A DNA stretch of 41,142 nucleotides, from the sequence record PZ019083.1; one strand, given 5' to 3'. A program made the position numbers and the translations under genes. Position 1 is the stretch's first letter. Every line of letters starts with the position of its first letter. Source of the DNA: a phage. The notes beneath the pieces were generated by a model. The model was not told the origin of the DNA. It searched no databases and saw only the letters and a program-made list of their open reading frames with translations. This document shows, piece by piece, positions 1-41,142 of the stretch.

Positions 1-561
1 ATGCAAGGGGATTCTATGAAGCTGAAACTTAAGCAGCCATCGCCAGAGGTGGTGCAAGCTGCACATGAAGAAGCTGTTAGCGCAAACCGTCGCCGTAAAC
101 GACCGCGCGGTAAACAGAGCCTTTATCAATCATCCCGTAATTCCGCCGCATTGTGGGACCCGGACTATTGTGACGCGTTAATCGAGTTCTTCGACCGCAC
201 GTCATGGGAACTTGTACCTACGTCCAAGGGCGACGAACGCCCGTTGATTCAGGATAAGCCACCATCGCTGGCCCGCTTCGCCTTACACATCGGCGTAACT
301 ATCCCAATTATTAAGCTATGGCTGCGTGAGATTCCCGCATTTGCGGAAGCCTATGAGACAGCACAGGCGCTGGAAGAGGCATACTTCACTGAGACGGGGG
401 CGGCGGGCATCTCTGCTACATTTGCTGCCGCGAAACTGGGCCTTAGCAAAGAGAAACCGGTTGAGTCCACCGAAGAAACAGCACCGACCGAGATTGTTTT
501 CAGTGTTGCAGAGCCTGTAGGTAAAATCGTAACAACTAACATGGGCGAGGTAGAGGAATGA
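1..561 (+). CDS. terminase small subunit (may be 5'-incomplete at window edge; alternative ATG at 16)
   Basis: Basic N-terminus, 4-nt overlap with the downstream large terminase gene; position and size typical. Confidence 0.55.
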   Translation: MQGDSMKLKLKQPSPEVVQAAHEEAVSANRRRKRPRGKQSLYQSSRNSAALWDPDYCDALIEFFDRTSWELVPTSKGDERPLIQDKPPSLARFALHIGVTIPIIKLWLREIPAFAEAYETAQALEEAYFTETGAAGISATFAAAKLGLSKEKPVESTEETAPTEIVFSVAEPVGKIVTTNMGEVEE

Positions 562-12714: not shown

Positions 12715-12744
12715 TTTAAACCCCTTCATTGTTGGTGTAAGTGA

Positions 12745-12773
12745 ATAGTACCCTATTATATTGGGGTGTGCAA
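12745..12773 (-). promoter_or_regulatory. sigma70-type promoter TTGCAC-17-TACTAT (class A) driving the antisense accessory operon
   Basis: Near-identical to promoters at 34294 and 35511. Confidence 0.55.
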
Positions 12774-25121: not shown

Positions 25122-25406
25122 CTAACTATAATAGTTAGCTATTAGGTCGTCAACCTGTTTAAACGAACCAACGACAAAAACATTCGCGCCACGTTTACGC
25201 ATCCGCGCGTGTTCACGTAGCTGGTGCGGGTCTGGCTTCGTGTTTTCGTCTTTCTTAACCTCGACGAACCAGACTATGCCGCCGGGGAGAATTACCAGCA
25301 GGTCAGGAGCGCCTGAGCGCCCCTCGTAAGACAGCTTACGAACGAGGCCACCAATGGCCTCGAACATCTCTTTTGCGTATTTCTGAATCTTGCCTTCCGG
25401 GGTCAT
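25122..25406 (-). CDS. VRR-NUC domain nuclease
   Basis: Motif GAPDLLVILPGGIVWFVEVK typical of VRR-NUC PD-(D/E)XK fold. Confidence 0.65.
   Translation of the reverse strand: MTPEGKIQKYAKEMFEAIGGLVRKLSYEGRSGAPDLLVILPGGIVWFVEVKKDENTKPDPHQLREHARMRKRGANVFVVGSFKQVDDLIANYYS
25125..25153 (-). promoter_or_regulatory. sigma70 promoter TTGACG-17-TATAGT (class B) embedded in 3' end of VRR-NUC gene
   Basis: Same architecture as promoters at 28680 and 30799. Confidence 0.5.
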
Positions 25407-28679: not shown

Positions 28680-28708
28680 ACTATAATAGCTAACTATTCA
28701 GGTGTCAA
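28680..28708 (-). promoter_or_regulatory. sigma70 promoter TTGACA-17-TATAGT (class B)
   Basis: Consensus -35, 17-bp spacer containing GAATAGT element. Confidence 0.6.
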
Positions 28709-30798: not shown

Positions 30799-30827
30799 AC
30801 TATAATAGCGAACTATTCACATGTCAA
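30799..30827 (-). promoter_or_regulatory. sigma70 promoter TTGACA-17-TATAGT (class B), overlaps operator repeat R1
   Basis: Consensus hexamers; spacer carries ACTATTCACATGTCAA. Confidence 0.6.
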
Positions 30828-34293: not shown

Positions 34294-34322
34294 TTGCACA
34301 CCCCAACATAATAGGATACTAT
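34294..34322 (+). promoter_or_regulatory. sigma70 promoter TTGCAC-17-TACTAT (class A)
   Basis: Near-identical to 35511 and 12745(-); ACTATTC copies at 34285 and 34318. Confidence 0.55.
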
Positions 34323-34356
34323 TCACTTATCGGAACGAGACAGAGGAGTGAGGGTT

Positions 34357-34542
34357 ATGTTTAAGAAGGGTCAGTTGGTGAGAATTTTGGAGACAGGGGG
34401 GTTAGCGGTTATTTCATTCGCACACCACAAAGAATGTAGTGTTTATTTTGCAAAATCTTTAACGGGGTCCTATCTCACCGTGTTATACGCACAAGATATG
34501 AAACTCATCGGCAACAATTTTAAATTCAAAGGGGCGAAGTGA
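34357..34542 (+). CDS. hypothetical protein (61 aa)
   Basis: GAGGAG RBS 7 nt upstream. Confidence 0.45.
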   Translation: MFKKGQLVRILETGGLAVISFAHHKECSVYFAKSLTGSYLTVLYAQDMKLIGNNFKFKGAK

Positions 34543-34745
34543 TGGAAGAATTATTTGAAGAACTGAAACATCATGAGTTCGAGGAGATATATTTTGTAGC
34601 TGAACGCTACGAGGTGCATTTAGTGGACGGGGTTACAATTATTACAATGGATAGCCAGCAAATGCTAAATAGCTTACGGGCTATACGAACGGCATCTAAT
34701 CATGATGCTCGTGCCGACGACTCCGAGGGAGGTTGCCGTGAATAA
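34542..34745 (+). CDS. hypothetical acidic protein (67 aa)
   Basis: TGATG overlap coupling; AAGGGG RBS. Confidence 0.4.
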   Translation: MEELFEELKHHEFEEIYFVAERYEVHLVDGVTIITMDSQQMLNSLRAIRTASNHDARADDSEGGCRE

Positions 34746-34805
34746 TTACCCGTTCATTTTAATTGTCAGCGCCGTTTATGTGGTGCACGCGTTGCGGGGG
34801 TTGGT

Positions 34806-35000
34806 ATGAGTCCCTATAACGAATCCCGCTTACGCCGTCTGATTGGTGGTCTGCGCGCCGCCGAGTTTGTTGTTGAATGTTGGGAGAAGGTGCAATATGC
34901 CCCATGGAAGTCGTGGCATTTGGCTCATGCTAAGGAGGTAGCACAGTACCGTGAGTACAAGTTAAACAGTTTCCTTAAACACCACGGGGTTGAGTTATGA
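34806..35000 (+). CDS. hypothetical protein (64 aa)
   Basis: ORF with ATG start. Confidence 0.4.
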   Translation: MSPYNESRLRRLIGGLRAAEFVVECWEKVQYAPWKSWHLAHAKEVAQYREYKLNSFLKHHGVEL

Positions 35001-35140
35001 GAGAAGCATTTGAACGGTGGGCCGTAGTCGAGGGTCTGCCGGTTAACAAGGGTTCAAAGAAAGAGTACCTGAACGTTAAGACGCGTCTCGCGTGGCGGGC
35101 GTGGAAAGCTGGTGTGCAAGCTGTGATGAATAAGGGGTGA
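34997..35140 (+). CDS. hypothetical protein (47 aa)
   Basis: ATGA overlap with upstream stop. Confidence 0.35.
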   Translation: MREAFERWAVVEGLPVNKGSKKEYLNVKTRLAWRAWKAGVQAVMNKG

Positions 35141-35143
35141 GAC

Positions 35144-35350
35144 ATGAGTGAGTGGGTTAAGTGTAGTGAGCGGATGCCGGGGCTAGGCAAACCAGTTTTG
35201 GTCGTCAGTAGTATGGGCGGTGTGGTCCAGAACAATGTGTACGAGTGGGATGGGGTAACTTGGTGTGATTTCCGGGCGGACTACGGGGAACACGCGAAGG
35301 AAGTGTTTTCTCACTGGATGCCGTTACCCGAGCCGCCGTCGCTGGTGTAA
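35144..35350 (+). CDS. DUF551-like protein
   Basis: C-terminal SHWMPLPEPP signature recalled from DUF551; AAGGGG RBS. Confidence 0.45.
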   Translation: MSEWVKCSERMPGLGKPVLVVSSMGGVVQNNVYEWDGVTWCDFRADYGEHAKEVFSHWMPLPEPPSLV

Positions 35351-35510
35351 CAGGTGGTGTAACAGGTCAATAGTTTGAGATTTTACTGAGTGACTTACGC
35401 TGCTACACAGCAGCGTATCATTTTTCTCATTTTTGTTCTATTTCACCAAACGCAACAATCGAAGCGACTATTGCAGGAGATGCAACAATACAAACACCAA
35501 TAAAATTTAC

Positions 35511-35539
35511 TTGCACGCTAATATAGAATAGGTTACTAT
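35511..35539 (+). promoter_or_regulatory. sigma70 promoter TTGCAC-17-TACTAT (class A)
   Basis: Consensus-like; ACTATTCA overlapping -10/+1. Confidence 0.55.
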
Positions 35540-35570
35540 TCATTTACACAAACGAGAGGAGAGGCGGAAG

Positions 35571-35720
35571 ATGGTTACTTTAATGGTTATGGAGTTCGAA
35601 AACAGCGCAGCAACTTACCGCGAGATGACTATGGCACAGGCGTACCACCTGGCCTCAAACGGCAACTTCTACAAGGCGCAAATCATCAACGAGTTCGGGG
35701 TAATTGACTATGAATTTTAG
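35571..35720 (+). CDS. hypothetical protein (49 aa)
   Basis: GAGGAGAGG RBS. Confidence 0.4.
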   Translation: MVTLMVMEFENSAATYREMTMAQAYHLASNGNFYKAQIINEFGVIDYEF

Positions 35721-37273: not shown

Positions 37274-37582
37274 TTGGATAAATTTACTGAAACAGTGACG
37301 GGGTGGCTTCTCGCTGCCGCACTGGTCGGTGGATTGGTCGGACTAAGACAACATAAAAAGTCTATATCCGGGCCGATTGACGGACTGGTATTTCTTCTAA
37401 CCGGCTTTGCGTGTGCCATTTTCGGTGCACCTCTTGCCGCTCAATGGTTCGGTATTACCGGTGAGCGTGAGATAGCTGGCCTCGGATTCATCATTGCCAT
37501 TCTCTGGATGCCTATCTATTCCCGCCTTTCTGGCATCGTATCGGGTGGAGATATTTCCCGTCCGGGAGGACCTCATGACTGA
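37274..37582 (+). CDS. holin (3 predicted TM segments)
   Basis: Small protein with three hydrophobic helices and charged C-terminus, TTG start after GGAGGA. Confidence 0.55.
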   Translation: MDKFTETVTGWLLAAALVGGLVGLRQHKKSISGPIDGLVFLLTGFACAIFGAPLAAQWFGITGEREIAGLGFIIAILWMPIYSRLSGIVSGGDISRPGGPHD

Positions 37583-37847
37583 GCTATTCTGGTTTGTCGT
37601 AATGCTTTCAATGGGCGCTTCGTCCCTGTTCAACGTGTATAATGAGCGTGTGGACGACGGGCTGTTCGGGCGTGTTCTCTATATCCTGACCGCTATTGTC
37701 TGCGCCGCCGGGTGTATCCACCTGTTACAGGGCGGCATGTCGCCTACGTTGCCCGAGACATTAATCACATTAGTTGCGCTGCGTCAGATTCGTCAGGCGT
37801 GGCTGTCGTACGGAGGACATAAGCGTGTCTCGAAACATTTCAGATAA
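37575..37847 (+). CDS. second holin / antiholin-like membrane protein (2 TM)
   Basis: GGGAGGA RBS; two hydrophobic helices; overlaps neighbours. Confidence 0.45.
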   Translation: MTELFWFVVMLSMGASSLFNVYNERVDDGLFGRVLYILTAIVCAAGCIHLLQGGMSPTLPETLITLVALRQIRQAWLSYGGHKRVSKHFR

Positions 37848-38310
37848 TGGATTGCATTTTACCTCTGCATTTGAGGGATTCCGCGGAACTGCGTATCGTG
37901 CTACCCCAAACGAGAAGTACCTTACTATTGGGTACGGACATTACGGGCCGGACGTAACCCCGGGTAAGACCATCACACCGGGGCAGGGCTTGCTGTTACT
38001 GAATCGCGATATGGCTAAGGCTGTAGCTGCGGTTGACGCGGCAGCACACCATTCGCTGACACAGGCACAGTTTGATGCAGTGTGCGACCTGGTCTATAAC
38101 GCGGGTGCTGGTGTGATTGCAGCTACTACAGGCACGGGTAAGGCGCTGCGTTCTGGTGATATTGCAACGCTGCGGGCTAAGCTGGCGCTGTTTATCAACC
38201 AGAACGGCAAACCGTTACTCGGCCTGCGTCGCCGTACAGCCGGACGCCTTGCACTGTTCGACGGTAAACCGTGGCAGGAGGCTGAGGCTATTGGGAGGGC
38301 TGTTAAATGA
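37825..38310 (+). CDS. endolysin, lysozyme-like (glycoside hydrolase, T4/lambda-type fold)
   Basis: Motif FEGFRGTAYRATPNEKYLTIGYGH with catalytic Glu context; GTG start after GGAGGA. Confidence 0.65.
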   Translation: MSRNISDNGLHFTSAFEGFRGTAYRATPNEKYLTIGYGHYGPDVTPGKTITPGQGLLLLNRDMAKAVAAVDAAAHHSLTQAQFDAVCDLVYNAGAGVIAATTGTGKALRSGDIATLRAKLALFINQNGKPLLGLRRRTAGRLALFDGKPWQEAEAIGRAVK

Positions 38311-38455
38311 TGGAAGAGAACTGGGACGTATAGTACAATTGCAGCGCCGCTTGTGCTTGCGAAGGATTGAAGTGATGATGGACGAATACGAAGGCGTTTA
38401 GTAAACTTACATCACGCTGCTTGTGCTTGCACCACCCCGAAACCCGGACCCCGAA

Positions 38456-38484
38456 ACCCGGACCGCGAATCCGGGTTTTATTTT
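38456..38484 (+). terminator. intrinsic terminator
   Basis: ACCCGGA-CCGCGAA-TCCGGGT + TTTTATTTT. Confidence 0.55.
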
Positions 38485-38613
38485 GCCCGCAGTTTGATAG
38501 ACTAACGGCAACAGAAGATTAAACAACATTGAGGGCACTCCGGGTATCATCACCCTCATGGACCTGTAACAAGGTCTGGCCAAAGTGCGGTAACGCGTGC
38601 CGGAGAATCTCTG

Positions 38614-38642
38614 TTGACACCTAAGACTAATCCGACGATACT
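38614..38642 (+). promoter_or_regulatory. candidate promoter TTGACA-17-GATACT
   Basis: Consensus -35, 4/6 -10. Confidence 0.35.
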
Positions 38643-38648
38643 TAAATC

Positions 38649-38714
38649 ACCTCCTGTTCCATCCCTCTACTCTCCAGTTTTATCCCGGCCCTGACCCAGC
38701 CGGGATTTTTTTTT
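38649..38714 (+). ncRNA. candidate short RNA (about 65 nt) ending in strong terminator
   Basis: Promoter-like site upstream, TCCCGGC-9nt-GCCGGGA hairpin + T9; carries ATCACCTCCT. Confidence 0.25.
38683..38714 (+). terminator. intrinsic terminator
   Basis: 7-bp GC stem, 9-nt loop, nine consecutive T. Confidence 0.65.
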
Positions 38715-38736
38715 ATTTATTTTCTGCAATGACTAG

Positions 38737-38765
38737 TTGACTATTACCTTCGACCCTATTATATT
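38737..38765 (+). promoter_or_regulatory. sigma70 promoter TTGACT-17-TATATT
   Basis: Near-consensus hexamers upstream of gene at 38800. Confidence 0.55.
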
Positions 38766-38799
38766 TACTGCATCGACAACGAGAACGGAGTAGAGAGAA

Positions 38800-38940
38800 A
38801 TGAGAATTTACAAGGTTGAGCTTCACGGTAAAGTACTTGGTCATTATAACTTTGGCGAGTACATCTCCGCCGATTGCGCACGTGACATCCTGATTAGCGA
38901 AGGTTTTAGTCAATACATCAAAGTCACGGAGATTAAATAA
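38800..38940 (+). CDS. hypothetical protein (46 aa)
   Basis: GGAG RBS; not in ORF track (under 60 aa). Confidence 0.4.
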   Translation: MRIYKVELHGKVLGHYNFGEYISADCARDILISEGFSQYIKVTEIK

Positions 38941-39089
38941 TGAAAATCACAGATACCGAAGCATTCAAAGACGCACAACTGATGGCACGCATCGCCGTTA
39001 GTAACCTGAGCAACAGCATTCCGGCTGACGCGTTCTGGTTCGCTGCGATGCAGACACTGAAAGCAGCTTATGCAGGAGAGAAGAAATGA
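38940..39089 (+). CDS. hypothetical protein (49 aa)
   Basis: Start-stop overlap TAATG. Confidence 0.35.
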   Translation: MKITDTEAFKDAQLMARIAVSNLSNSIPADAFWFAAMQTLKAAYAGEKK

Positions 39090-39247
39090 GCGAACAAGGT
39101 CAAGTAAGCCAGCCATTACGAGTAGGCCGTAAAGTAAATCACACCCCGTTCCCAACACGCGAGGAACTGATGAAACGTAACGGTTTCCCTGGGCCAGACA
39201 AGAACAAGTATCTCAATCGCATGTGGGGAGAGCGTAAAAATGACTGA
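39086..39247 (+). CDS. hypothetical protein (53 aa)
   Basis: ATGA overlap. Confidence 0.35.
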   Translation: MSEQGQVSQPLRVGRKVNHTPFPTREELMKRNGFPGPDKNKYLNRMWGERKND

Positions 39248-39425
39248 CCGCGACTACGAAAAGATGATGGTAGAGGCCGTTAACAGCGGCATAGACATTG
39301 GCCACGTGATGCACGTCCTGAATACTAAAATCGCGGTAGCCGAGCAAATGGTAGAGTCGCTATATGAGACGCGCCGCGAGCTGATTAACCGCTTCAACCT
39401 GAACAAAGGTGACACCAATGCCTAA
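39240..39425 (+). CDS. hypothetical protein (61 aa)
   Basis: ORF track; overlaps upstream by 8 nt. Confidence 0.4.
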   Translation: MTDRDYEKMMVEAVNSGIDIGHVMHVLNTKIAVAEQMVESLYETRRELINRFNLNKGDTNA

Positions 39426-39666
39426 AATAACAATCGCATCACTCGAGCGCCGTATTCTGGTGCTTGAGTCAGAGAAACAGACGTTAGGCGGGCAACTGTC
39501 AATTAACGGTGAGTACCAGTTAGCCGCATTTAAGGTTCTTCTCATGTTGTTGAGAGGAGAAGAGGAAAAGATGAACGCCTGCGAGCATGATTACCGCCTG
39601 CATTTAGTTGATGGGGTACATCGAGTCACATGCTTAAAATGTGGTAAAGCGTATGGAGTCGCCTGA
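39418..39666 (+). CDS. hypothetical protein with C-terminal Cys/His cluster
   Basis: CEHDYRLH ... CLKCG. Confidence 0.4.
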   Translation: MPKITIASLERRILVLESEKQTLGGQLSINGEYQLAAFKVLLMLLRGEEEKMNACEHDYRLHLVDGVHRVTCLKCGKAYGVA

Positions 39667-39835
39667 GCCGGTAGTTATTGACGGTGTCCTGTGGAAACCT
39701 TACTCGGTTAACCACATCGACGCCGACGGGAAGAAGTTCAGCTTCTACATTTTTGCAATTAGCCGTGAGCACGCCGCCTGTGTGGTTGACGATATACGAG
39801 AAACGGCGTGGCTTGGTGATGAGATAGTGGGGTGA
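39653..39835 (+). CDS. hypothetical protein (60 aa; start uncertain, GTG 39641 possible)
   Basis: ORF track frame. Confidence 0.3.
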   Translation: MESPEPVVIDGVLWKPYSVNHIDADGKKFSFYIFAISREHAACVVDDIRETAWLGDEIVG

Positions 39836-39839
39836 GAGT

Positions 39840-39932
39840 ATGAGTCTTGAGGTTGTTATTGGTCTTGTAGCCACCGGTTATTTTATCGGCGTATTGATTG
39901 GCTTTCTGTGGGGTAAAGACAGTGTTCAGTGA
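39840..39932 (+). CDS. 30-aa single-TM peptide
   Basis: MSLEVVIGLVATGYFIGVLIGFLWGKDSVQ. Confidence 0.3.
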   Translation: MSLEVVIGLVATGYFIGVLIGFLWGKDSVQ

Positions 39933-40092
39933 CATCAACGCAGCAATCGAAGAAGCAATCTGGCGTCGCTACAATGGCGAGCAACAGCGGCACTTTTGCC
40001 TCGTGCAACGCGGTAACATGGTTGCCGCGTTGCAGGACCGCGATAACAAATACCCGAATGCGATGTGGACAACGAGGAATTTCTTAGGATGA
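39898..40092 (+). CDS. hypothetical protein (start uncertain, GTG 39922 possible)
   Basis: ORF track. Confidence 0.3.
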   Translation: MAFCGVKTVFSDINAAIEEAIWRRYNGEQQRHFCLVQRGNMVAALQDRDNKYPNAMWTTRNFLG

Positions 40093-40286
40093 AACATTTC
40101 TTAATTGGTTTCAATTGGGCGGACAATACCGGACGTAGTGGTTTCGGGAATAGCGAACGTACACCTACCAACGGCGATAAATTTACATACGACGAACTAA
40201 GGAAAATTGAACAGAGCATCGCAAAGTCTCTCCCCTACGGTGCCGAAGTGATTATTCTTAGCGTATCGGAGATTGCCGCAGAATGA
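40089..40286 (+). CDS. hypothetical protein (65 aa)
   Basis: ATGA overlap with upstream stop. Confidence 0.3.
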   Translation: MKHFLIGFNWADNTGRSGFGNSERTPTNGDKFTYDELRKIEQSIAKSLPYGAEVIILSVSEIAAE

Positions 40287-40519
40287 TTACCAGCATTCCT
40301 AACCTGATTAAAGAATTCGGCACGATGGCGGAGACATGCCGACAAACCGGCATCAACGAAATGACGATTGCGAAGTACAGCAAAGACGTGAACTGCGAGC
40401 GCCACGTAATTTATAACAACCGTCTCATGACGCACGTTAAGACAAGCCCGGTATTATTCACGCGCCGTGGTATCACTAAAACAGAGCAACGCATTGCTAA
40501 AGAGGAGAGCGGAGAATGA
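40283..40519 (+). CDS. hypothetical protein, possible HTH (78 aa)
   Basis: ATGA overlap; segment CRQTGINEMTIAKYSKD. Confidence 0.35.
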   Translation: MITSIPNLIKEFGTMAETCRQTGINEMTIAKYSKDVNCERHVIYNNRLMTHVKTSPVLFTRRGITKTEQRIAKEESGE

Positions 40520-40698
40520 TTGAGGTTTTAGAGTTTCTTAGCCGTTTTGGAAATAATGTATTTATTATGGCGTTCGCATGGGCGCTTATATCAAGTTGGT
40601 CTGTAGTGAAGCAACTACCAAAGATTCAATTATGGATGATTGTTGGTGGGTTATATGTATCTGGTATCGCGGGCATCCTTTTGTGGTTTTTCAAATGA
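40516..40698 (+). CDS. small membrane protein (2 TM)
   Basis: GGAG RBS, ATGA overlap, hydrophobic helices. Confidence 0.4.
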   Translation: MIEVLEFLSRFGNNVFIMAFAWALISSWSVVKQLPKIQLWMIVGGLYVSGIAGILLWFFK

Positions 40699-40796
40699 GA
40701 TTATTAATCATCCCTAACGCCTGGACCATTCCTGTAGCTAACGACCATTACGGCGGCGATGGTAAAAGAGCGCCACGACACGGCCTGTATAACTGA
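40695..40796 (+). CDS. hypothetical protein (33 aa)
   Basis: ATGA overlap. Confidence 0.25.
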   Translation: MRLLIIPNAWTIPVANDHYGGDGKRAPRHGLYN

Positions 40797-40810
40797 TTGG
40801 AGAGTAAGAG

Positions 40811-41032
40811 ATGAAAATTCAGCTAATATCAGATGATGATGTTATGAATTGTGTAGGTAAGATGCACCACGGAGAGCCTACTTATTACATCCGTAACGTA
40901 TTAAAATACACATATCCGAATTTAGACACACCATCAGTTCTCCGTAAGCTTAAGGATATGGAGAAAAGAGGCCTCGTAAAGCGAACTAAAAGTCCGCTCT
41001 TCAAAAATAACATAACCTGGACCTCGGTATAG
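40811..41032 (+). CDS. hypothetical protein (73 aa)
   Basis: GGAGAG RBS; followed by terminator. Confidence 0.45.
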   Translation: MKIQLISDDDVMNCVGKMHHGEPTYYIRNVLKYTYPNLDTPSVLRKLKDMEKRGLVKRTKSPLFKNNITWTSV

Positions 41033-41041
41033 CCGCTACTT

Positions 41042-41063
41042 GCCCTCTACGGAGGGCTTTTCT
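41042..41063 (+). terminator. intrinsic terminator
   Basis: GCCCTC-TACG-GAGGGC + TTTTCT. Confidence 0.55.
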
Positions 41064-41142
41064 GTACATCCCGCCCAATCCCCTTATATAATCCATTTAG
41101 ACGCGTAGGGCGCGTCTGGTGCGCTCTGATGGTCAGACGCAT

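Follow-up and report, generated by a model that had tools for sequence, protein, structure and literature searches.

The 41,142-nt stretch of phage DNA analysed here (sequence record PZ019083.1, referred to as the window) carries, at positions 38800-41032, a dense run of very small genes, which raises the question of whether these are genuine genes, whether they form a single transcription unit and what their products may do. Megablast comparisons of this region and of the first 25 kb identified the window as a complete ~41 kb Kagunavirus genome (Guernseyvirinae; K1G/K1H-like siphoviruses of E. coli); 378 phage records were matched, the nearest of which are ~90 % identical to the window. The window is circularly permuted, with the micro-gene cluster near its right end and the small terminase gene terS (window positions 1-561; phrog_3064; start at window position 1 or 16) at its beginning. 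The cluster is thus situated between the lysis cassette, with holins at 37274-37847 and an endolysin at 37774-38310 (PF00959), and terS, and its position directly 5' of terS was invariant in every relative looked at. The comparisons reported here indicate that it is probably a self-contained accessory operon of 13 translationally coupled micro-genes, which extends from a sigma-70-type promoter to a terminator and occupies the lysis-to-terS slot of all Guernseyvirinae (Kagunavirus and Jerseyvirus).

A previous sequence-only reading had described this region as twelve open reading frames (ORFs) of 30-82 aa, almost all linked by ATGA or TAATG overlaps. When the ORFs were read together with their homologues, the size range was retained and the count rose to 13, all on the plus strand (designated here as o1 through to o13); six of these are shorter than 60 aa, in line with the remark that several were absent from a 60-aa ORF track. 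The dense coupling was also recovered, as ten of the 12 junctions overlap, whereas 'almost all' was too strong: five junctions are of the ATGA and one of the TAATG type, next to four longer overlaps (8, 8, 14 and 11 nt) and two gaps (4 and 14 nt). The resulting chain covers 99.2 % of 38800-41032, leaving 18 non-coding bases in 2233, a coverage that was never reached in 2000 dinucleotide-preserving shuffles (mean 58 %, maximum 87 %). A recognisable Shine-Dalgarno sequence was found upstream of 10 or 11 of the 13 ORFs. The o12 gene, which has an ATGA overlap with the gene upstream, also in relatives where that gene is a different one, lacks such a sequence and would therefore have to depend on stop/start coupling.

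Homologues were obtained from 54 IMG/VR loci, fetched with the endolysin as bait, and from GenBank loci. Scored by codon-usage log-odds, with 16 long genes of this genome as the training set, all 13 ORFs gave their highest value in the own frame (of six) and lower values in the reverse frames; since stop codons penalise the other frames, this score was taken as supporting evidence only. For o2 to o13, substitutions were shown to concentrate at third codon positions, and most distinct homologues possess an intact ORF with the start codon at the same position. Their pooled ratios of non-synonymous to synonymous substitution (dN/dS) range from 0.07 (o6) to 0.39 (o11), these being pooled pairwise counts against the window that are not phylogenetically independent, though the signal is uniform. 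Selection on o1 was assessed from a single, saturated comparison with a T-even-like homologue (proportions of non-synonymous and synonymous differences, pN and pS, of 0.21 vs 0.76). PHROG families were matched by ten of the 13 ORFs, all of them categorised as 'unknown function'. The comparative conservation check proposed for the micro-ORFs thus turned out in their favour, with purifying selection and mostly intact ORFs across dozens of relatives, and on this comparative footing the 13 micro-genes are genuine and under purifying selection.

The promoter and the terminator that had been claimed for the ends of the cluster are both present and kept across relatives. The promoter (TTGACT-17-TATATT; 38737-38765, plus strand) matches the consensus at ten of 12 positions and is preceded by the T-rich tract of an upstream terminator. 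In an alignment of ~40 relatives, both hexamers are invariant while the 17-nt spacer drifts (TTACCTTCGACCCTAT vs TTACTCTTACACCAAT). The predicted leader (~38772-38799), ending in the ribosome-binding site (RBS) GGAGTAGAGAGAA, was found to be invariant or nearly so together with this RBS (AACGGAGTAGAGAGAA) in the same relatives, whichever gene comes first. At the other end, a Rho-independent terminator (GCCCTC-TACG-GAGGGC followed by TTTTCT; 41042-41063, plus strand) closes the cluster; its position is kept, and its stem displays compensatory changes to GCCCGC...GCGGGC in two related loci (L047 and L049) and to CCCGC...GCGGG in two others (L040 and L041). The number of promoters and terminators returned by a scan is by itself at chance level, and it is the conservation across relatives that carries the case.

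A conserved promoter (TGTACA-18-TATAAT; 41063-41092, plus strand), assigned to the terminase/structural operon, forms the right-hand boundary, while the left-hand boundary toward the lysis cassette is formed by a conserved terminator at 38682-38714 (plus strand; AUCCCGGC-9 nt-GCCGGGAU followed by U9), with a predicted fold of -13.8 kcal/mol (z -2.6) and compensatory C:G to T:A changes in L034, L046 and L047. Given this upstream terminator and the promoter and terminator of the cluster itself, the unit would be insulated on both sides. Judged by comparison with relatives, the arrangement is that of a single operon, in which one promoter and one terminator bracket co-oriented genes, and the region is expected to yield one mRNA. 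Co-regulation, as proposed in the sequence-only reading, is well backed by inference from the one conserved promoter, the one conserved terminator, the 18 non-coding bases in 2.2 kb and the overlapping junctions.

To define gene content, a census was made of the 34 clusters retaining both anchors (promoter and terminator). Their promoter-to-terminator span varies from 1073 to 2515 bp, and clustering of their tiled ORFs yielded ~41 small-protein families in this slot. Four families (o2, o3, o4 and o10) are present in all 34 clusters and four others in most (o6 in 32, o8 in 31, o5 in 27 and o12 in 26), and together these constitute a backbone of fixed order, o2-o3-o4-o5-o6-o8-o10-o12. Additional genes are inserted before o2, between o2 and o3, o6 and o8, o8 and o10, or o10 and o12, and after o12, the occupants of such slots in the window being o1, o7, o9, o11 and o13. 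In these alignments, the content of the region is mosaic, with a syntenic backbone plus unrelated small genes that are swapped at gene boundaries.

The same stretch is annotated as 9-12 hypothetical proteins in the GenBank relatives EC3-1, JSSK01, Golestan and VIPECOTH07, among which a few labels (NinH family, DUF2737 family and 'NinZ-like') are found. These annotations contain gaps: o7 is missing in EC3-1, JSSK01 and Golestan, where its homologues fall in unannotated gaps, o8 is also missing in EC3-1, and o12 in Golestan. In EC3-1, the homologues of o6 and o2 are labelled 'host nuclease inhibitor' and 'head protein', respectively; these two labels were backed by no search and are considered to be annotation noise. 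A blastn search of the cluster DNA against 5,426 complete E. coli genomes returned no match, indicating that, at the level of DNA, these genes are not carried by prophages. Rfam searches of the whole window at gathering thresholds, and of 38250-41142 under permissive settings, identified no RNA family, giving only weak terminator-like matches, and no tRNA was found by a tRNA search. By sequence comparison, the region is found, already annotated, as a standard part of both Kagunavirus and Jerseyvirus genomes, and its organisation is a mosaic of backbone and cassettes. As relatives hold the same slot with reshuffled genes annotated as hypothetical, it represents an ordinary accessory region rather than a new kind of system.

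Among the backbone genes, o10 (40283-40519; 78 aa; phrog_268, E 4e-30; dN/dS 0.14) encodes a NinH-like helix-turn-helix (HTH) protein. Pairwise BLASTP comparison revealed 31 % identity over 51 aa with NinH of lambda (NC_001416; E 4e-9) and a match to NinH of P22 (E 3.7e-6), and, at the sequence level, o10 is homologous to both across the HTH. Its own match to PF06322 (22.0 bits, E 1.6e-4) is below the Pfam gathering score of 29.8, while eight cluster representatives of 60-97 % identity carry a precomputed match to this family. NinH of lambda is Fis-like and dimeric, binds DNA and bends it, and has toxic effects on over-expression; seven residues that it requires for DNA binding were identified by mutagenesis, namely N18, R30, T32, K35, H45, H55 and R56 (PMC7166090). 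Four of these seven are kept in o10, where T32, K35, H45 and H55 correspond to T28, K31, H41 and H51 and are invariant or nearly so in the alignment, whereas the other three are changed (N18 to T14, R30 to an invariant E26, and R56 to V52). The AlphaFold2 model of o10 (predicted local distance difference test, pLDDT, of 72) shows three helices and a beta hairpin; its top neighbours in a Foldseek search of the PDB are all HTH regulators (LysR, MntR, Cro and Stl), none of them significant (E >= 0.39), and Fis is not among them.

The other backbone genes begin with o2 (38940-39089; 49 aa; phrog_2180, E 5.5e-27; dN/dS 0.24), which is joined to o1 by the TAATG junction and is intact in 42 of 46 distinct homologues. 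The basic protein encoded by o3 (39086-39247; 53 aa; isoelectric point, pI, of 10.3; dN/dS 0.21) belongs to the DUF2737 family, with a PF10930 match of 35.9 bits against a gathering score of 25 (E 7e-9; residues 20-46), and its C-terminal half is common to P22 (ea region), Sf6 and HK lambdoid phages. The acidic, helical protein specified by o4 (39240-39425; 61 aa; phrog_1402, E 4.8e-22; dN/dS 0.31) resembles the C-terminus of P22 NinZ in its C-terminal 21 aa (57 % over 23 aa; E 2e-4 in a 22-protein database) and gave a weak NinF-like match at its N-terminus (E 0.007-0.019).

The o5 gene (39418-39666; 82 aa; dN/dS 0.26) encodes an N-terminal coiled coil of ~50 aa followed by a C-terminal, zinc-ribbon-like CxH...CxxC head, and matches phrog_9023 over its full length (E 4.4e-47) and phrog_10200 with its N-terminus only. 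This head occurs in the window phage and a dozen others, while, behind their nearly identical ~50-aa N-terminus, the remaining homologues (among loci L002-L047) end in one of at least five unrelated C-terminal parts or lack such a part; in one database protein (P0017), the o5 N-terminus is fused directly to o6. As compared here, o5 is a modular, polymorphic small protein. The most constrained gene of the cluster is o6 (39653-39835; 60 aa; dN/dS 0.07), which encodes an acidic protein (pI 4.5), is intact in 29 of 31 homologues and is restricted to close relatives. Its AlphaFold2 model (pLDDT 84) predicts a beta3-alpha-beta fold, for which Foldseek searches of the PDB and BFVD gave nothing significant beyond its own family; weak fold neighbours, namely p56 of phi29 and Dmd of RB69 (E ~1-3; TM-score 0.4-0.5) and an 'RNA polymerase inhibitor', all with E >= 0.19, were not relied on. 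The backbone is completed by o8 (39922-40092; 56 aa; phrog_5407, E 6.8e-23; dN/dS 0.13) and o12 (40695-40796; 33 aa; phrog_32259; dN/dS 0.12). The former starts with GTG and is intact in 26 of 27 homologues, with its start codon at the same position (ATG in 21 and GTG in five), and the latter is ATGA-coupled to the gene upstream and intact in all 24 distinct homologues.

Of the cassette genes, o1 (38800-38940; 46 aa) occupies the first slot and had no homologue in 57 related loci; three Kagunavirus-like contigs have a 98 % identical copy of it, likewise in their first slot. Outside Kagunavirus-like phages, its homologues were found in T-even-like phages only, where small ORFs between denB and ndd of Gaprivervirus/JS98/JS10-type phages exhibit 66-68 % amino acid identity to it. 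One of these lies at 2492-2638 of L058 (phage UPEC07); some records annotate the T-even-like homologue as hypothetical, and the JS98 and JS10 records have no annotated feature under the match.

Two cassette genes specify the two small membrane peptides noticed in the sequence-only reading, and hydropathy agrees with that description. The first, o7 (39840-39932; 30 aa), encodes a single-pass peptide with one transmembrane segment (mean Kyte-Doolittle hydropathy over 19 residues, KD19, of 2.39); it is present in 16 of the 34 clusters, and its 12 distinct homologues are all intact and start with ATG (dN/dS 0.15). The gene for this conserved transmembrane peptide, of 27-30 aa, was also observed in L001 (2688-2765), L002 (1878-1967) and L003 (2644-2721). 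The second, o11 (40516-40698; 60 aa; phrog_10956, E 4.8e-14; dN/dS 0.39), is present in ten clusters and is predicted to have one or two transmembrane segments, i.e. a C-terminal one at residues 41-59 (KD19 2.0) and a weaker hydrophobic stretch at the N-terminus.

The o9 gene (40089-40286; 65 aa; dN/dS 0.14) matched no PHROG or Pfam family and is present in five of the 34 clusters; relatives of 41-78 % identity were found in 34 phage records, all inspected ones directly preceding the NinH-like gene. The last slot is occupied by o13 (40811-41032; 73 aa; phrog_9799, E 5.7e-25; dN/dS 0.14), a rare cassette (two clusters) that encodes a basic protein with a weak winged-helix signal (Pfam MarR, E 6e-4, below the gathering score) and whose homologue in EC3-1 is labelled 'ferric uptake regulation protein'. 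For the possible HTH protein that had been pointed out, there are consequently two candidates, o10 and o13. For the 11 proteins other than o10 and o3, the scans and searches that were run yielded no named family, solved structure or PADLOC model; NCBIfam and PADLOC scans of ten cluster proteins gave nothing meaningful, and no match was obtained in PDB sequence searches with o5, o6, o10 and o13 or in a profile search with o10.

Under the accessory-operon reading, host RNA polymerase would produce one polycistronic mRNA from the cluster, and ribosomes would move on to each following gene via the stop/start overlaps at the junctions. The products, which would not assemble into one multi-subunit machine, would be non-structural proteins that modulate the infected cell and of which each is dispensable on its own. 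Among them would presumably be one DNA-binding protein of the Fis/NinH type, a zinc-ribbon protein and a further, winged-helix protein, the pair of membrane peptides and a number of small soluble proteins. A conserved core would be accompanied by exchangeable cassettes recombining at gene boundaries, with o1 drawn from a gene pool common to T-even-like phages. The earlier suggestion of 'small effectors' is a plausible hypothesis.

As to known counterparts, the best-supported view is that the region matches in kind the nin and ea regions of lambda and P22 and the hyperplastic early regions of T4. Like the cluster, the nin region (ninA-ninZ, flanked by the replication genes and the antiterminator gene Q/23) consists mostly of small, non-essential genes with ATGA-type 4-nt overlaps, a junction type also visible in the lambda gene coordinates, is bracketed by terminators and varies in content among lambdoid phages; moreover, o10 and the C-terminus of o4 resemble NinH and NinZ, respectively. 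In contrast, the cluster lies between endolysin and terS, has a sigma-70-type promoter of its own and belongs to a virulent siphovirus without an N/Q antitermination context, whereas the nin genes are placed between replication genes and antiterminator inside the pR operon. Only two of the 13 cluster genes have nin relatives, NinB/Orf, NinG/Rap and NinI being absent, and several key DNA-contact residues of NinH are altered in o10 (R30 to E, N18 to T and R56 to V). When 22 nin and post-lysis proteins of lambda and P22 were compared with the cluster, no match with E <= 0.01 was obtained beyond those of o10 and o4 (next were o10/Rha at 0.031 and o1/NinI at 0.038), and of all these matches that of o10 to NinH is the one convincing case. 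With position, control and gene set all different, the cluster does not qualify as a nin region proper.

Hyperplastic early regions of T4-like phages, such as that from rIIB-denB to ndd, are dense in very small genes, and their content varies between close relatives; the o1 homologues, 66-68 % identical, sit exactly there. They differ from the cluster in phage family, and in T4 the early and middle promoters are remodelled by phage factors. To our knowledge, no backbone-plus-slot order within one promoter and terminator has been described for such regions. The P22 genes rha, orf25, orf80 and orf59c share the post-lysis, pre-terS position of the cluster and are likewise non-structural accessory genes, but they exhibit no sequence similarity to it, are fewer and larger and do not form a coupled micro-gene operon. 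Operons of anti-CRISPR (Acr) or other anti-defence genes with an HTH repressor of the anti-CRISPR-associated (Aca) type resemble the cluster in their strong promoter, very small fast-turnover genes and HTH gene; they differ in that the searches found no homology of the cluster to known Acr or Aca proteins or other inhibitors and in that most cluster genes are backbone rather than cargo.

Several points weigh against the accessory-operon reading. Transcription and translation of the cluster in this phage are predicted from sequence comparison, and read-through from the lysis operon or internal promoters may contribute, with weak internal promoter matches at 38807 and 39400. Dispensability is deduced from presence and absence, and the backbone genes found in all 34 clusters could be essential. 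As 11 of the 13 proteins are without a characterised relative, the designation 'modulators of the infected cell' rests on analogy. Furthermore, the one RNA sequencing study of a Kagunavirus that was found (vB_Eco_K1B4) annotates only 57 genes, does not resolve those of the cluster and classes the NinH gene as a 'middle' gene, grouped with lysozyme and structural genes (PMC12645636), which leaves an 'early host-takeover' timing unsupported.

The cluster could alternatively be an anti-defence island encoding small inhibitors of immune systems, with o10 or o13 as an Aca-like autorepressor of the strong promoter, a possibility that we consider rather unlikely. It would fit the strength and conservation of this promoter, the many very small genes, the rapid turnover of cassettes, the HTH gene near the 3' end and the gene flow between unrelated virulent phages, as well as the small size and acidity of o6 (pI 4.5), a property of many protein inhibitors. 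However, searches of Pfam, NCBIfam, PHROGs, the PDB and fold libraries, which did not include a dedicated anti-defence library, gave no sequence or fold match to a characterised inhibitor. The promoter of the cluster in the window also lacks the full inverted repeat found at other promoters of the genome, and the eight backbone families, which are strongly constrained and occur in between 26 and all 34 of the clusters, are unlike typical anti-defence cargo. In BASEL phenotyping, Kagunavirus isolates were highly sensitive to restriction-modification and variably sensitive to Old, and this sensitivity to restriction-modification makes a broad anti-restriction activity unlikely.

A more elaborate proposal concerns the exchange of cassettes itself. 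The promoter- and terminator-bounded slot might act as an integrase-less, integron-like exchange site, operating through the conserved leader and RBS and the overlaps at gene boundaries, by which unrelated virulent coliphages (Kagunavirus and T-even-like phages) would exchange micro-proteins that serve counter-defence or the takeover of the host; the o5 types would then be adaptors of modular build, their N-terminal coiled coil constant and their C-terminal heads interchangeable, and a neighbouring, conserved CU-rich short RNA (38649-38714) or an HTH protein of the cluster would tune expression. Taken jointly, these propositions are speculative and unlikely to hold all together.

It is quite improbable that o10, o13, o5 and their neighbours are packaging or late helpers, which would assist the terminase, recognition of the pac site or late gene control. 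Such a role would explain the fixed position just upstream of terS, and NinH-type proteins are able to bend DNA (PMC7166090); in addition, the K1B4 NinH gene is grouped with middle and structural genes, and conserved hairpins lie between the cluster and terS. Nevertheless, the conserved terminator and the separate promoter that divide the cluster from terS, together with content that mostly varies between phages sharing a nearly identical terS region, render this role less likely, and the lambda and P22 homologues of o10, o3 and o4 reside in nin and ea regions rather than in packaging modules.

There is very little probability that o7 and o11 are lysis accessories, i.e. spanins, antiholins or lysis-timing factors, and that the cluster is an extension of the lysis cassette. 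Both are predicted membrane proteins, their genes follow those of the holins and endolysin at a short distance, and the lysis genes annotated in relatives include no evident spanin gene; yet both are optional (16 and ten of 34 clusters, respectively), and a terminator and a separate promoter divide them from the lysis genes. A spanin role was rejected: o7 (30 aa) and o11 (60 aa) contain no Cys and hence no lipobox, which excludes o-spanins and u-spanins, and they are made up of hydrophobic segments almost throughout, with no periplasmic coiled-coil domain of the i-spanin kind. Finally, chance ORFs in non-coding DNA, or shadows of opposite-strand genes, are a negligible prospect: although each ORF alone is short enough to arise by chance and minus-strand ORFs of 82-94 aa overlap the region, this explanation is excluded by the comparative data (purifying selection and intact ORFs across dozens of relatives, and PHROG matches for ten of the 13), with the tiling reached in none of 2000 shuffles and the own frame always scoring best, above the reverse frames.

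The direct importance of the region is small. It is a regular feature of a phage subfamily that has been well sampled, and it is already in GenBank as hypothetical proteins. The gene map is nonetheless corrected to 13 genes, which include the conserved 30-aa membrane peptide o7, and in some cases o8 or o12, omitted in published relatives. The division into backbone and cassettes indicates to those engineering a Kagunavirus chassis which sequence is probably dispensable, and o6 (most constrained), o10 (NinH-like), o5 (swappable heads) and o1 (common with T-even-like phages) form a shortlist for functional screens. The more interesting points are the cassette-exchange architecture, the swappable o5 heads, the kinship of o1 with T-even-like phage genes, the micro-genes missed by annotation and a pair of nearby regulatory elements.

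A candidate tiny transcription unit lies just upstream of the cluster (38614-38714, plus strand). In its promoter (TTGACA-17-GATACT; 38614-38642), the hexamers are conserved and the spacer is variable, distant loci included; this promoter is followed by a 33-nt C/U-rich, G-poor single-stranded stretch (ACCUCCUGUUCCAUCCCUCUACUCUCC...), which begins with a 16S-like anti-Shine-Dalgarno sequence, (AU)CACCUCCU, and then by the terminator at 38682-38714. The segment 38649-38714 may be a small RNA of the phage, ~65 nt long, or else belong to the lysis operon as a rut-like 3' element, and it matched no Rfam family. Pairing of this RNA with the RBS of the first gene was considered but is not supported (8-9 bp only, no clear co-variation in the distant clade and a joint fold z of -1.7). 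Further upstream, ~300 nt between the endolysin stop codon and the 38614 promoter (38311-38612) are absent from most relatives, in which the promoter abuts the stop codon; this segment contains a tandem CCCCGAAACCCGGA repeat and a terminator-like hairpin (~38440-38495), both of them common to only 11 loci.

A further element is an inverted repeat, AATAG-N4-CTATT, fused to a -10 element (CTATTATAGT), of which the genome contains six copies vs 0.01 expected: one on the plus strand (12744-12760) and five on the minus strand (25127-25143, 28682-28698, 30801-30817, 34307-34323 and 35524-35540). Three of the copies are each placed in the spacer of a near-perfect promoter on the minus strand (TTGACA/G-17-TATAGT, starting at 30827, 28708 and 25153), ahead of the replication-gene block. 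The repeat is probably the operator of a phage regulator. The cluster promoter in the window keeps only the right half of the repeat, and the full motif is found at the cluster promoter in some Jerseyvirus-like loci (L040-L042 and L049).

In the 5' leader of terS, which extends from 41098-41142 into window positions 1-16 (plus strand), two adjacent hairpins were observed, AGACGCG(UA)-GGG-CGCGUCU and UGCG-CUCUGA-UGG-UCAGA-CGCA, with a fold of -24.4 kcal/mol (z -2.6) and conservation extending to Jerseyvirus-like loci. The real start of terS is probably the ATG at window position 16, which follows the Shine-Dalgarno sequence AAGGGGA, and not the ATG at position 1. Another run of small plus-strand ORFs (35-68 aa), presumably the earlier of the two runs implied in the sequence-only reading, was observed at 34348-35720, upstream of the lysis genes.

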